Shown in pieces: positions 12,470-29,155 of a DNA stretch of 64,000 nt. This DNA comes from an uncultured bacterium (lineage in GTDB: Bacteria > Babelota > Babeliae > Babelales > Babelaceae). The notes under the pieces are model-generated. The model worked only from the letters and a program-made list of their open reading frames with translations. It ran no database searches and was not told where the DNA came from. Each line of letters begins with the position of its first letter. Position 1 is the stretch's first letter. The stretch spans positions 32,001 through 96,000 of the forward strand of contig CAWGPQ010000006.1 in NCBI GenBank assembly GCA_963824495.1, given 5' to 3'. The translations under genes were made by a program, and so were the position numbers.

Positions 12470-12976
12470 TTACAAAGCATTAAGAACATCGCAGGTTCGT
12501 CTCAAGTACTTGAGCTTGAGCTTTGCCAGTTTTGGAACTAGCTTTAGGAATTTCTCATGATAATGTTTGGTTATTGAAGGAAGTTCATCTCGTGTTGCTT
12601 GAAGTAGCTCTTTGCCTACAAGCGGTGCTAGCGTTCGGTCCCTTTCAATTCGATTCAGCACGCCTTGGGCAACTTTTGCAAAGTTAGGATACTTCATAAG
12701 CAATTTGACTGTCTTGGTAATATCGGAACTTTTTACCTCAAGCACAGAGCACAAGGTTCTGCCATTACTTACCATGCCTTCAATGCCTGTTGCAGCATTT
12801 CCGGAGGTAATAATCTGGCGGGTTAGTCTATGAATTTGATCTACTGTTTGCCTCAAAATACCGGCATCTTTTTCATGTGACCCAGCATATGAGATAAAAC
12901 TAGAAGATGCTGATGCGAGCATAACCGCACTTAGTACAACGTAATATACGTTACTTTTCAAAGAGTAATGTGTCAT
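12470..12976 (-). CDS. Hypothetical secreted protein
   Basis: Signal peptide, AAGGG SD-like site upstream. Confidence 0.6.
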   Translation of the reverse strand: MTHYSLKSNVYYVVLSAVMLASASSSFISYAGSHEKDAGILRQTVDQIHRLTRQIITSGNAATGIEGMVSNGRTLCSVLEVKSSDITKTVKLLMKYPNFAKVAQGVLNRIERDRTLAPLVGKELLQATRDELPSITKHYHEKFLKLVPKLAKLKLKYLRRTCDVLNAL

Positions 12977-14135
12977 TTTTTACCCTTATTGTTGTAAGGT
13001 TAAAAATATTTTGTGCATAATGCGCACTTTGAAAACATTATTCAGTTTAAAGCACTTATACGTTATGTCAAAAGGGTATACTTAAGCGCTAAAACAATTT
13101 ATAAAATAATTTATAAAATTTAAAAAATACATAATTTCTACTAATTGATATTATTTTTATAAATTTAAGAATAAAACTACTTTATCAACAGGAATTACGA
13201 ATAAGTATGAAAGATTTGAGTGGATAGTGGATCACTATATTCTAATAAGATCGCGTGTATTAAAATGATCACTAAAGATGACAGCTTCAAGTCCGGCAAA
13301 AAATTCTTGCTCTAATGAGTTAAAGTTATCATGATTGCTAAGTACGAGGAGGCTTATATCATTTGATAAAAAATGTATGAGATAAGCTGTGAAACCACCA
13401 GTGCCACCCCCGTGACCCAATGTCATGTCTCTACTGTATGGAGCAGGAGTAAGCACCAGGCCATAACCATATGATGAATTCTCGCGTATTCCATCCCCCC
13501 AGTTTGCATTACACCTGTTCGCATAAGATTCACTAACTCAGCATTGAGCAATTTCCCAGTGTGTAACGCTTCATCAAATAGATAGAGATCTCCGACTGTA
13601 GAGCACACATTTCCAGCACCAACTGACCAAGACATTTCATAAGGCTCGGTTGGTGAAAACTGATCTAATTCGAGTGTATAGCCTATGGCTTGATGAGGTT
13701 TATTTGAGCCATCATCGACATAGCTATTTTGCATTCCCAATGCCTCAAAGATATATTTTTGAAGACATGCTGCGTAGCTCACTCCAGCAACTTTTTCTAG
13801 AATATAAGCAAGGAGAACAAAATTCGAATTGCTGTAGTTAAATTTTGCTCCGGGTTGACATTTCAGTTCCTCATGTTTTATTAAATCCACCAATTCAGTC
13901 AGTGCAATTGGCTTTATGGATAATCGGAGATATACATGTTTAACGTATTGTTTATCTGCAAGTTGCCTTGTTCTTGCTGTTTTAGAATAGCAATTGCAGT
14001 AAACATTTTAGTAACTGATGCAATTCTAAAAGTAGTATCTAATTGATTCGGCTTGCCCTTTTCCTGATTGGCATAACCGTAGCCCTTATGAAGCAATATT
14101 ATAGTGACCCCCTGCGTTAAGACACGAAAATAGAT

Positions 14136-24882: not shown

Positions 24883-24989
24883 ATGTGGTATAAGGCAGGT
24901 AGCAGGACTGCTTCTTGCGATGATAGAAGAATTTGTGCTGCTTTAAGGTCCCTATCAGCGTGCTCAAGCCATTCTTTATGCTCTTGCAT
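24861..24989 (-). pseudogene. Truncated HEPN-domain toxin remnant
   Basis: Manual translation MQEHKEWLEHADRDLKAAQILL..ALYH matches the HEPN N-terminus, then runs into the end of the oxidoreductase gene; overlaps the MNT stop. Confidence 0.75.
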
Positions 24990-25308
24990 AAATTTTCTTT
25001 CCTTGTCGCTTAATTTTGTAGTGTAAAGATGAGGTCCTTTCTGATGCTTGCTCGAACTCTTTTTGGCTTAGCAACAAAATATCTTTAGGAACTGGAAGCC
25101 CAACAAGAGCACGGTGACCTTCAACAAACGCTCGGTAGCGATCTTTAACTTCTGTATCAACTACGACAAGAAGGTCAAGATTGCTTTCTCCATCTGGGCA
25201 GCCCCAGGCATAAGAACCAAATATGTAAATTGCAAGAGGATTGTACGTTTTAATTAACTTATCTCGAGCGTCATTTACTATTTTTTCAAGTGATTGCTTA
25301 TTAATCAT
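24976..25308 (-). CDS. Minimal nucleotidyltransferase (MNT antitoxin-like)
   Basis: IYIFGSYAWG..SNLDLLVV (first catalytic Asp appears as Asn). Confidence 0.88.
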   Translation of the reverse strand: MINKQSLEKIVNDARDKLIKTYNPLAIYIFGSYAWGCPDGESNLDLLVVVDTEVKDRYRAFVEGHRALVGLPVPKDILLLSQKEFEQASERTSSLHYKIKRQGKKIYARA

Positions 25309-25511: not shown

Positions 25512-27599
25512 ATGAGCACTACTACCAAATATATAGAATTTTTTCTTATTCTAGCAATCTCGTTTTGTTCAACACGGTTACTTAAAGCTGAAAGCTCGAG
25601 TAGCTTGCCATTTCAATTTCCAAGAGCAGGGTACAAACTTGATTATGACTTTGGAGACGACCAGAGCTTTTGCGCTCCATTAAATAATTTCTCTTACGAT
25701 ACGCCTGATTATTCATGCAAAGATATTTACCCATATCAAGAGTTTTCGTATTTCCAACAAGAACCAACCCTAGCCAGATCGCTATCCTCTACGCCATCTG
25801 CTGCTTATGACATGTATCAACATATACGTACTATACGTATGCGCCGAGACCGTCCTTTAACACGACGAGAAGAGCGGATAGCTGAGAGTATACGTCAGGA
25901 ACTTAATCAGCAACGTGAGTATGAAGAACAACAAGAGAAAGAGCGTATATTTCGACGTAATCTTAAAGATTACACAAAGAAGATTTCACCAACGCTACCG
26001 ACACCAATAAAGCACTGCTTAAAAAAGGATAATCGATTTGTTGATAATTACCGTGAACTGGTAGAAACAAATTTTTCATCTAACCAACACTATCTTACTG
26101 AAAAAGCTAAGAAATGGAAAGCACTTCTTGATTGTCGTGGTGATGACCTAAGACCACATGAATATAAATGCTATAGTCGCCGCCTGGAAGCTCTGGACCA
26201 ACTGAAACAGAATAATGTAGCCTGGGAATCACATAACTACACAATATCGCCAGAGATTGATCATGTACTACAGCATTACGGTATTGATCAACGACTTTAC
26301 ACTCAATGTGTGGGCAATACTCTACAGCACGTACTGCATCAAGAAATACTCGAAACTCTTGATGGCTTTTCGCAGCTTGATACACGCAAGTACACCGACC
26401 CTTTATTATATCGCCTTTCCGATACTGCAGTTTATAGTGCAGAATTGGGCCGCTTCTGTAATAGTGTTGGTTGTATGGAGCAAGGCTTTGATAGTAGCGA
26501 TTTTGCTTGGAGTATTGTTGATTTCTTAGGTACCTATGGCTACGCAATAAAAGATGGTTTCTCGGCAGAATGCTCTCGATTCTTCAGCTCTTTCTTTCAC
26601 CCAATTGATACTGCTCGTGATCTTATTCATGCTACCTATGAGGTTAGCAAGCTTCTGGGCAAGCTTGTTTATAAACGAATTTATTGGAAGTATTTAAGCT
26701 ATACCAATAGGGAGCTCTTACTAGAGGAATGCATTCGTACTTACGAAGATGCTCTCATGGTTATTGAAGCTGTTGAAAGTCATATTAAAAGCACACCTCC
26801 TCCTGAGCTTGTTAAAAATGCAACAGCATTTCTCACAAGCTGGTTTATTCCTGGTGCTTCGATCAAGGTAGTCAAATCGCTTTTAAAAGCAAGTCGTGGT
26901 GTAGATTGTCTTGCTCTGGCTAAACGTTTTAGAACGTTAACTCAAGCAGCAAAGGCAAGGGTAATTATACAAAACCCTGGAACTGTACTTCTTGCTAACG
27001 CTTTTGAAACTCTTGAAGAGCTTGTTGAAATTGGCAAAGATACCGCAAAAAGAGCTTGTGGTGCTGTCTGCAATACTAAGCACCTTATAAAACTTAAAGC
27101 TCTTGAGCATATTTTGCTAAATAATGAAGAGATCGAGAAGTTAGCTTGTATGTATAATAATGTGCTTGAGGGATTCGCTCAAATCAATTTTAAATCAATT
27201 ATTATTAACTCTGCGCATATACTTGGGCCAGAAATTAGATGTGTAAAGAAAGGTCTGGAATTATCTGGGTTTCATCATGATTTTATGGGCTTTATACAAA
27301 AGGCTGGCATAATACTATTTGATTGTATTAAAGAAGAAGCACATGGTATCTATAGTGCCAACTGGTATTACAATGGTATAAAAAAGCAATCAACATTTTT
27401 CCCAAAAGCATGGGATAGAGCTAAAGTAATAGAAAAGATTATAGAAGCATATAAAAATCAAGAATTTCGCGAGTTAACATCTCAAGGCAAATGGAGAGTT
27501 AGGGGCATGACCAATGAAGGAATAAAAATAGAAATAATCATAAACAAACTGGGTGAAATGACTTCGGCATATCCAATAATTTCCTTGAGAAAATTATGA
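25512..27599 (+). CDS. Polymorphic toxin-like protein: signal peptide, helical trunk, C-terminal bacterial EndoU nuclease
   Basis: HILG..SGFHH..KQSTFFPKAW..IIEAY..G..EGIKIE..TSAYP EndoU pattern; FHPIDT linker motif. Confidence 0.85.
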   Translation: MSTTTKYIEFFLILAISFCSTRLLKAESSSSLPFQFPRAGYKLDYDFGDDQSFCAPLNNFSYDTPDYSCKDIYPYQEFSYFQQEPTLARSLSSTPSAAYDMYQHIRTIRMRRDRPLTRREERIAESIRQELNQQREYEEQQEKERIFRRNLKDYTKKISPTLPTPIKHCLKKDNRFVDNYRELVETNFSSNQHYLTEKAKKWKALLDCRGDDLRPHEYKCYSRRLEALDQLKQNNVAWESHNYTISPEIDHVLQHYGIDQRLYTQCVGNTLQHVLHQEILETLDGFSQLDTRKYTDPLLYRLSDTAVYSAELGRFCNSVGCMEQGFDSSDFAWSIVDFLGTYGYAIKDGFSAECSRFFSSFFHPIDTARDLIHATYEVSKLLGKLVYKRIYWKYLSYTNRELLLEECIRTYEDALMVIEAVESHIKSTPPPELVKNATAFLTSWFIPGASIKVVKSLLKASRGVDCLALAKRFRTLTQAAKARVIIQNPGTVLLANAFETLEELVEIGKDTAKRACGAVCNTKHLIKLKALEHILLNNEEIEKLACMYNNVLEGFAQINFKSIIINSAHILGPEIRCVKKGLELSGFHHDFMGFIQKAGIILFDCIKEEAHGIYSANWYYNGIKKQSTFFPKAWDRAKVIEKIIEAYKNQEFRELTSQGKWRVRGMTNEGIKIEIIINKLGEMTSAYPIISLRKL

Positions 27600-28033
27600 A
27601 TTACATAATATTAAAAAGAATTGATAAAAATGATTATTGGCCCATCAAGAAAAATAAAATAAGCAATTTATATAATTTGTGGTCACTTTTTAATAGTACC
27701 GCATCACCAGAGATCCTTCTTAAAGAGTGGATACTAGATCCATCACAAGAAGTTTTAAGCACAAATAATTGTTATCTTCGCAAAGAGGGGAACAACGTGG
27801 TTGTGAGTGAATTATGTGGTTCTGATGATGAAAACGATGCTTATGCTATAACAGTACCGAATCAACAACTGTGTGCTTTAGTAGATGAATGGTATAAGCT
27901 ATGCCAAGCAGATGTAGAAAAGATTATCATATGGTCTGTTGGCGATGACTTTACAATTTCTGAATATCTTGAGCCGGAAGAGTTATCCACAAATAATGAC
28001 CCAAGGAAAAATAGCTACTCTAGCATATCGTAA
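27596..28033 (+). CDS. Putative immunity protein 1
   Basis: ATGA overlap with toxin stop; small, acidic; paralog of 28115-28510. Confidence 0.7.
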   Translation: MNYIILKRIDKNDYWPIKKNKISNLYNLWSLFNSTASPEILLKEWILDPSQEVLSTNNCYLRKEGNNVVVSELCGSDDENDAYAITVPNQQLCALVDEWYKLCQADVEKIIIWSVGDDFTISEYLEPEELSTNNDPRKNSYSSIS

Positions 28034-28034
28034 A

Positions 28035-28118
28035 ATGATAAATTTCGTAACAATCTGCAAGGGTTTGCGTATAGGTGAAGTGATTTCAGCATATCCTCTA
28101 ATCAAAAGTGCATTATGA
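28035..28118 (+). pseudogene. Vestigial toxin C-terminal tip (27-aa mini-ORF)
   Basis: MINFVTICKGLRIGEVISAYPLIKSAL* matches toxin end LGEMTSAYPIISLRKL*; ATGA overlap with the next gene. Confidence 0.7.
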
Positions 28119-28510
28119 ATTACAGAATATTAAGAAAGATTGGTAAAAATGATTACTTTCCTATAAATGATATAACAAGCGATGTGGATATATTATGGTT
28201 ACTTTTAAATGGCACACCAACACTTGATCTCTTTCTTAAGGACTGGATAGTAGATCCCCTTCAAGGAGTTTTAAGTACAAATAACTGTCTCCTATGGAAA
28301 GGAGGTGATAAGGTAACCATAAGCTTTTTATATGCTGAAGTTGACCCCGAAGATGATCCTAATGCACTCTTAATAACAAAGCAACAACTTTGCGATTTGG
28401 TAGACCGATGGGATAAGCTCTGTGAAGCAGATGTGGAAAAGATTATTATATGCGGTATTGGTGGCGATTTTACAGTTTCTGAATATCTTGAGCAGGAGCG
28501 ATCACTATGA
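28115..28510 (+). CDS. Putative immunity protein 2 (orphan paralog)
   Basis: Shares MNY.IL..I.KNDY.PI, LK.WI.DP.Q.VLSTNNC.L, QQLC.LVD.W.KLC.ADVEKIII, DFT.SEYLE with 27596-28033. Confidence 0.75.
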   Translation: MNYRILRKIGKNDYFPINDITSDVDILWLLLNGTPTLDLFLKDWIVDPLQGVLSTNNCLLWKGGDKVTISFLYAEVDPEDDPNALLITKQQLCDLVDRWDKLCEADVEKIIICGIGGDFTVSEYLEQERSL

Positions 28511-29155
28511 AGAATTACTGTATTATTAATGGGGGGAAGTAAAAATTGGCGTATTTATAGGTGAAAATTTAAATAACAAAATGACTTCTGAAGAAATTGC
28601 GATTCTTAGGCAACAAGCAGAAGAAGATATATATAAAAAGTACACACTTGAGAATATTACTTCTATACCAAAAATAACAGATTGGCGTGAGGCATATCGC
28701 TCCTTTGGATGTAAACCGTCAGAGTATAGAAGCTCTATAGAAGCATTACTGAGAAGGGTCTTACAGGGCAAACAACTACCTTTGATCAATGCCATTGTTG
28801 ACATTTATAACCTTATTTCTATCAAGCACGTGCTTCCTGCCGGTGGTGGAGATCTTGATAAGATTAAGGGAACAATTAATTTAACAATCTCCGAGGGAAC
28901 AGAGCACTTTGTAATGCTCGGATCCTCGAATTCGGTATCAATAAAATCTGGTGAAGTGATTTATTCTGATGATAGCCAAGTGCTATGTCGTGCTTGGAAT
29001 TATCGGGAATCTGATAAAACTAAAATCACTGAAGATACAAAAATGTTTACCTTCTCCTGGAAGGCCTAAAAAATACATCCGATGAAGAAATAACTGACGC
29101 GCTTTCTGAACTAGCCGCACTAATTTCTTTTACCAACCGTGTTCCGAGTAGTTAA
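28507..29155 (+). pseudogene. B3/B4 (PheT-like) tRNA-editing domain protein with frameshifts at both ends (core ORF 28581-29069)
   Basis: WREAYRSFG.KPS.YRSSIEALLRR, INAIVDIYN, D.DKI.G, CRAWNYRES; one extra A at 29039-29043 restores TKNVYLLLEGL. Confidence 0.8.

Follow-up and report, generated by a model that had tools for sequence, protein, structure and literature searches.

A trunk domain widespread in Babelota bears a predicted EndoU RNase tip followed by candidate immunity genes

Among described systems, the nearest in design to the locus reported here is MafB/MafI of Neisseria, in which a signal peptide, a lineage-restricted, conserved and non-repetitive domain and a variable C-terminal toxin (EndoU among others) are followed by an immunity gene, with orphan tip cassettes and with no dedicated secretion gene in the locus (PMC4287609; this and the papers below are cited for their passages on the points named). 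The EndoU domain of MafB is a uridylate-specific RNase (PMC4287609), and that of CdiA-CT STECO31 cleaves tRNA-Glu by means of a His-His-Lys triad (PMC9086364). More toxins with lineage-specific domains have been predicted (PMC3482391, section 37), and intracellular bacteria are described as generally carrying toxins without immunity genes, suggesting rare kin conflict (PMC3482391). Here we analyse a locus of an uncultured Babelaceae bacterium of the phylum Babelota (assembly GCA_963824495.1; genome of 1.33 Mb, about 41% GC content, 96.85% complete), contained in a window of 64,000 nucleotides (contig CAWGPQ010000006.1, positions 32,001 to 96,000). Its central open reading frame (ORF; 25512-27599, plus strand) encodes a protein of 695 residues made of a hydrophobic leader, a helical trunk domain of ~340 residues and an EndoU tip. 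The architecture is almost certainly that of a polymorphic toxin-immunity system. With a probability of roughly 0.7, we read the protein as a secreted EndoU toxin with two predicted cytoplasmic antidotes, likely cutting the RNA of rival bacteria and belonging to a phylum-wide system.

Comparison across the family shows a constant trunk on which the tip is swapped near residues 490-520, each tip having its own downstream gene. Trunk homologues were collected with phmmer from 1.84 billion representative sequences (E ≤0.001), and the best 150 of the 207 matches supplied the family profile and the family counts. In this profile a domain of ~340 residues abuts the tip (median 118 residues), and the region ahead of the domain varies freely, from <100 to ~1000 residues among relatives. 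A tip of at least 50 residues is present in 128 of 152 family proteins; these tips form 29 single-linkage BLAST clusters, at least two of whose singletons look like truncations. Pfam recognised toxin tips in 43 of 149 scanned proteins (EndoU 27, one of them just below cut-off; Ntox21 6; Ntox35 6; Ntox17 2; Cytotoxic 1; Ribonuclease 1), a repertoire that includes colicin-E3-like and barnase-like RNases, and one scanned relative additionally has a PT-HINT domain. Most clusters carry no Pfam name; one with six members we take, by eye on the sequence, to have a restriction-endonuclease fold. The trunks of relatives P0083 and P0117 are 94.5% identical over 274 residues and their tips unrelated, and the same holds for further pairs with trunks 80.6% and 80.5% identical. 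Nearest trunk neighbours share a tip class in 31 of 102 cases, and the clustering of the library at 50% pushes this figure down. Tandem arrays (four copies in genome G244, three in G017, two in G019) display the exchange within single genomes: the distal trunks are 76-100% identical and the tips of most pairs drop to ~5-35%. One pair in each of the G244 and G017 arrays retains related tips; the others mostly switch abruptly.

The tip of the window toxin (27192-27599, plus strand) matches EndoU_bacteria (PF14436) over residues 607-689 with an E-value of 4.9e-14 and 53.2 bits against a cut-off of 25.3, and no other Pfam family exceeds its cut-off in the protein. Imm47 matches weakly (12.7 bits, cut-off 27.2), and no Rhs, FHA, LXG, PAAR or MafB family is listed at E up to 1. 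The EndoU motifs are H569, G586-F-H588-H-D, S627-T-F-F-P631 and S685-A-Y-P. The conserved histidines His569 (codon 27216-27218, plus strand) and His588 (codon 27273-27275) are kept in 30 and 29, respectively, of 33 aligned EndoU tips. A search of the tip against PDB sequences gave no significant match; with the whole window model, the best Foldseek row was XendoU (2c1w) at E 0.055, below significance.

The gene that follows (27596-28033, plus strand; 145 residues, acidic, without a leader) overlaps the toxin stop codon by 4 nucleotides (ATGA) and, with its relatives also standing downstream of EndoU tips, is likely the cognate immunity gene. Behind it lies a second paralogue of the family (28115-28510, plus strand; 131 residues), whose product shares 55% identity with the first and 64% with that of the gene behind an orphan tip at C14:133669 of the same genome (G000). 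The two immunity proteins have net charges of -10 and -11, the tip +6. Among 46 intact toxin ORFs with room downstream, 45 have a gene starting between -30 and +60 nucleotides from the toxin end (18 overlap by 4 nucleotides), a count made without a chance control, and the CdiI_ImmP and CdiI_N immunity families stand behind other tips. In our phylum set of 261 genomes (one order, 21 families) the window immunity family occurs in 64 genomes, often in runs; in 26 of 29 other genomes its best copy follows an EndoU tip within 400 nucleotides (23 of 26 once the loci that trained the profile are set aside). Of 44 trunk hits that end in another tip or in none (a few of them truncated or represented twice), not one is followed by this family. 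At G000:C14:133067-134052 an EndoU tip interrupted by a stop codon stands as an orphan with an immunity gene, and orphan cassettes or immunity arrays occur also at L057, L070, L073 and L078. The target is probably bacterial, because extra and orphan immunity genes would make sense only against the toxins of other strains. Neither small gene has a Pfam match above cut-off and the immunity protein has no PDB sequence match. DUF5376 (PF17346) is a weak lead: its atlas score against the immunity protein is 0.92 (215 of 256 features, of low recognition value), Pfam finds it in one of 50 family members (E 0.061) and nowhere in the genome at E 1, and we found no literature on it.

The predicted Sec signal peptide occupies residues 1-26 (25512-25589, plus strand) and has no lipobox. 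Its residues 8-19 (IEFFLILAISFC) are hydrophobic, with a best ten-residue Kyte-Doolittle (KD) mean of 2.85; cleavage is guessed after L24-K25-A26, and E9 and R22 make the leader slightly atypical. The call comes from a hydrophobicity heuristic, passed by 92 of 113 full-length-looking relatives, by 205 of 497 long ORFs of the genome and by 1 of 113 internal controls. A lipobox-like pattern appears in one of 178 family sequences, and a search for a conserved upstream partner found no similar pair among 25 upstream ORFs. The sequence-only reading of this DNA, which had picked out a hydrophobic leader, an EndoU motif set, a coupled small gene of unrecognised family and the lack of Rhs, FHA, LXG, PAAR and MafB signatures, was right in all of these; it had noted one small gene, and the second paralogue lay outside its range.

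The genome encodes two secretins and two GspF/PilC-family genes, and VipB and VirB4 found no match in the 96.85% of it that is covered (the control matched for VipB). Type II secretion is the sole system reported for Babela (PMC4378268) and is described as conserved in TM6 genomes, with two gspD copies (PMC4776705); Chromulinavorax apparently sheds vesicles in food vacuoles (PMC6561590). Export probably starts with Sec and ends with either type II secretion or vesicles. Type III or flagellar export was considered and rejected: the FHIPEP match falls in a foreign-looking contig tail of ~55-69% GC content (G000:C11:~173900-190653) on a contig of 39-44%, probably misassembled or contaminating DNA. 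Other ORFs in this tail look like FliI and CtrA. GspC-like and secretin genes at L002:9586-13674 (G000:C14:~135585-139673) lie ~1.5 kb from the orphan EndoU/immunity cassette, perhaps by coincidence.

The conserved trunk domain, which remains unclassified, covers residues ~178-515 (26043-27056, plus strand) according to the family profile and structure models. Ahead of it is a variable N-terminal region of residues 27-177 (25590-26042, plus strand), a low-confidence segment (predicted local distance difference test score <50 at residues 21-91) followed by a long charged helix (residues 118-161), and behind it a linker of residues 516-560 (27057-27191, plus strand) runs from the end of the profile to the EndoU fold. 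The helical trunk of ~550 residues first proposed divides into these three parts, of which the N-terminal one is poorly conserved. Near-invariant residues are R224, G268, Q272, H276, E278, N317, G320, D330, G349 and H363-P364. In the AlphaFold model the core of residues ~190-345 is confident and helical, and the helices beyond it are less certain; residues ~320-390 form a Gly/Ala/Ser-rich, mildly hydrophobic helical stretch. We rate a role of the trunk in delivery at about even odds, a role that would fit because of this stretch and because the trunk is fixed ahead of the tip. A T-P/A-E/D-G motif (N488-P-G-T491 in the window copy; G in 95 of 138) closes the trunk, perhaps marking a junction for recombination or processing.

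No Pfam, NCBIfam or PDB sequence matches the trunk. Foldseek gave no match that reached E 0.001, its weaker ones being designed proteins and helical bundles of a generic kind, and the best VIA-align match was a generic three-helix bundle (Z 8.9, root mean square deviation 2.2, 81 residues); such matches would suit a new fold and a known one alike. The trunk domain was found in 126 of the 261 phylum genomes (90 of 189 of good quality) and in 17 of 21 families (32-sequence profile, E ≤1e-5), counts in which ~30 of the 126 genomes supplied training rows and weak matches stand unchecked. As a single query it matched nothing in 72,556 plasmids, 50,697 phages and one E. coli chromosome. Only four of 68 trunk relatives carry a taxon in their name, all four Dependentiae or Babeliales, and one record titled Pseudomonadota is probably mislabelled, judging from its identity (84%) and contig-end truncation, as in G186 of the order. 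The searched phylum genomes, plasmids, phages and E. coli chromosome suggest a trunk restricted to Babelota. Word-based searches with the window trunk or a broad profile recovered only this genome's copies, and a pattern scan of genome contigs found nothing, both methods being too insensitive; it was HMMER-based searching that brought up the family. Trunk homologues were the check that the sequence-only reading had named for its idea of a possibly undescribed delivery class, and they carry many unrelated C-termini, with no Pfam, NCBIfam or PDB entry matching the trunk. That idea suits the trunk family; for the general scheme it was too strong, as this is a described category (PMC3482391, section 37). 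Long family members (P0018, P0064, P0072, P0078 and P0079) reach 1074-1575 residues, and in all of these except P0064 two separate stretches match the query, a sign that the trunk domain may be duplicated.

This genome contains six trunk copies. Besides the window toxin (P0001) there are three close copies on contig C14, 75-78% identical, of which two are cut or flanked by transposase-like genes (possibly IS3-like). A distant copy of 952 residues, likewise on C14, has an immunity-family gene of its own, and a copy of 498 residues on C9 (P0006) lacks a tip. P0001 and P0004 are 92-96% identical at residues 251-350 and 52% identical at residues 651-695; their immunity genes are 50% identical. Near-identical transposase-like insertions lie beside or inside toxin copies at L001:7171-8061 and 12838-14024 and at L003:10750-11936, and in the copy at C14:106118 such an insertion splits the first 39 codons from the remainder. 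We also observed toxin-like bodies outside the trunk profile. One, at L006:2522-5065 (minus strand; G000:C14:110521-113064) and also at G000:C15:140-2776, L071, L081 and L083, suggests a second Babelota toxin family; on C14 it ends in a restriction-endonuclease-like tip (by eye) followed by two tandem genes of 261 and 284 residues, and in other genomes it carries EndoU tips with the same immunity family. At L063, L066, L069 and L079, EndoU tips and the window immunity family accompany a trunk that is either of a third type or strongly diverged and has LNPVTQ in place of the main family's HPIET.

In the mechanism we propose, the leader would route the toxin through Sec, and exit would be by a type II-type secretin system or outer-membrane vesicles. 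The trunk would bind the target cell, its Gly/Ala-rich helices helping the tip across the target's inner membrane, and His569 and His588 would, going by EndoU biochemistry, cleave tRNA or other RNA so that translation stops. The coupled gene would shield the producer and its kin and the extra paralogues would shield them from other strains' EndoU variants, all this likely inside a protist that the strains share, in its food vacuole or its cytoplasm. A bolder version makes the trunk a self-contained delivery module for phylum-wide fighting inside protists, exported by Sec and type II secretion or vesicles, with dozens of interchangeable nuclease tips (several without a known family) and at least one new immunity family; to this we give slightly less than an even chance.

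Several points weigh against the reading of a secreted toxin aimed at rival bacteria. Toxicity, binding and secretion of the window toxin are predictions, and the frequency with which two strains share one host cell is an assumption of the competition model. The trunk has no known homologue, its delivery role being drawn from position and mild hydrophobicity (family-average KD ≤0.84), and behind the leader of P0001 no further segment is strongly hydrophobic (best 19-residue window, 1.18). Because leaders are common in the genome (the 205 of 497 above), this one is hardly informative on how the protein would pass the outer membrane. The column of the triad Lys, placed by alignment and motif and not by structure, holds Ser627 in the window tip (Lys in 20 and Ser in 9 of 33 aligned tips). 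For the immunity genes, the adjacency count of 45 of 46 has no chance control to stand against, and three of the 29 loci trained the immunity profile. The library clustered at 50% favours differing tips among nearest neighbours, and a quick trunk tree, weakened by long branches, needs 50 tip changes against a shuffled mean of 63.5 and a minimum of 10; tip class would thus cluster somewhat on the tree, with swapping frequent and not random.

Of the rivals, the one that survives best keeps the toxin-immunity system and makes the trunk a surface anchor, a vesicle-loading tag or a chaperone, with entry left to the linker or to an unlinked machine. Anchoring or clustering has been proposed for lineage-specific N-terminal domains (PMC3482391, section 37), the polar residues that never vary in the confidently modelled core, a small bundle of helices, would suit a binding site, and P0006 has the trunk without a tip. 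We nevertheless think this unlikely, if the least unlikely of the rivals: the lipobox is nearly absent from the family, none of 25 upstream ORFs resembles another, and the trunk always stands directly before the tip and its N-terminal side varies freely, as in a pre-toxin entry region.

Effectors directed at the host are a weaker rival still. The tips would then hit cytosolic or mitochondrial RNA of the protist, and the small gene would guard only against self-poisoning during synthesis. The phylum is described as strictly intracellular (PMC12172432). Chromulinavorax, which replicates up against the mitochondrion of its host, secretes numerous effectors with signal peptides (PMC6561590), effectors would be expected to leave by type II secretion (PMC4378268), and bacterial-type RNases could act on mitochondrial RNA. 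The host-directed effectors of amoebal symbionts, however, are described as usually lacking immunity genes (PMC3482391), the diverged extra immunity paralogues and orphan cassettes would be useless against a host, and the recognised tips and immunity families are of the types found in interbacterial systems. The sequence-only reading had left open competition inside the host or action against it; the immunity arrays favour bacteria as the target.

It is also improbable, to a slightly greater degree, that the trunk belongs, as a very remote relative, to a pre-toxin family already known (MafB/DUF1020 or PT-TG-like). Among the language-model look-alikes of residues 180-515 are one cluster of MafB (0.86), one of PT-TG (0.84) and two short clusters without a name, from Bacillota (0.93) and Campylobacterota (0.90). 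The named look-alikes, however, stay below 0.9, with no more than 103 and 77 shared features out of 256; Pfam found neither MafB nor PT-TG in P0001, in 149 relatives or among the families listed for 32 trunks, and PF06255 matches nothing in the genome at E 1. Selfish addiction modules of toxin-antitoxin type, spread by insertion sequences and playing no part in competition, are very improbable even with transposase-like genes flanking or splitting several C14 copies and an integrase-like gene (named by eye from sequence) adjoining the G244 array, since a secretion leader and a conserved trunk of 340 residues are superfluous for addiction, the plasmids and phages held no trunk match (one query) and the window copy has no adjacent transposase.

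The locus is flanked by unrelated genes. Upstream on the other strand (24976-25308) lies a small nucleotidyltransferase gene (Polbeta/NTP_transf_2), which may be the antitoxin of an MNT-HEPN pair, and downstream (28581-29069) a B3/4-domain gene that matches positions 2-120 of the 174 of PF03483, its 3' end apparently shortened or frameshifted. Residues 26-550 are encoded at 39.8% GC content, the tip at 32.9% and the small genes at 33.8% and 35.9%; only 0.5% of 1482 genome-ORF chunks of the same length have ≤33.5%. GC content at third codon positions is nearly equal (29.9, 26.2, 29.7 and 27.5% for trunk, tip and the two small genes), so the greater AT-richness of tip and downstream genes that had been noted from the sequence is real and in good part reflects amino-acid composition; as a sign of foreign origin it is weak.

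A literature search confined to openly accessible papers without their supplements yielded no paper linking Dependentiae or Babelota to polymorphic toxins. The word 'toxin' is absent from PMC4776705, PMC6561590 and PMC12172432, and PMC4378268 mentions only two toxin-antitoxin pairs. About half of the genomes of a strictly intracellular, genome-reduced phylum keep predicted toxins together with immunity genes, often more than one copy of them, which suggests that co-infection and conflict in protists are frequent. The trunk profile also offers a hook for discovery, most tip clusters being unnamed in Pfam and each having a candidate immunity gene.

Set beside other known systems, the locus departs from most in its trunk. 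The filamentous haemagglutinin repeats and the adjacent CdiB/TpsB gene that mark CdiA were looked for: no FHA-type Pfam match is present in the window toxin or its relatives and no CdiB-sized gene is adjacent (a genome-wide ShlB search was uninformative, the control also giving no match). The same proteins have no Rhs or PAAR match in Pfam, VipB of the type VI secretion system likewise finding none in the 96.85%-complete genome, and no LXG, WXG100 or PT-TG match; the leader, moreover, is unlike toxins of the type VII secretion system. With the EndoU toxins CdiA-CT STECO31 and MafB MGI-1 NEM8013 the tip shares a PF14436 match above cut-off and two conserved His residues; it differs from STECO31 in the Ser at what alignment and motif suggest is the position of the triad Lys, and in an immunity family without a Pfam or PDB sequence match. 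MAFB-N, Microscilla-N and Amoebophilus APD1/APD2 likewise combine a signal peptide, a lineage-specific conserved domain and polymorphic C-termini (PMC3482391, section 37). APD1/APD2 carry a lipobox and have been described as effectors aimed at the host (PMC3482391), whereas the window family is lipobox-free and has immunity genes; compared by description and not by sequence, the conserved domain abuts the tip here and the leader there. Odyssella thessalonicensis, an amoebal endosymbiont with toxins and immunity genes, is an exception among intracellular bacteria (PMC3482391), but a single organism, while here about half of the genomes of an intracellular phylum carry such genes on a trunk of their own. 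The closest comparison is with Neisseria MafB/MafI, whose features, as given at the outset, recur in this family. Differences lie in the trunk, which has no DUF1020/PF06255 match, in the variable region between leader and conserved domain, in the lack of a mafA-like upstream lipoprotein gene (mafA is frequent, not universal, in Neisseria) and in distribution, MafB belonging to one genus and the Babelota trunk to 17 of 21 families of a phylum whose carriers live inside protists. For MafB, the way in which a non-repetitive toxin exported by Sec gets into its target was left open (PMC4287609), and the Babelota family would be a second, independent case. On the sequence evidence the system is one that would work like MafB/MafI, with a trunk that is different and unclassified.

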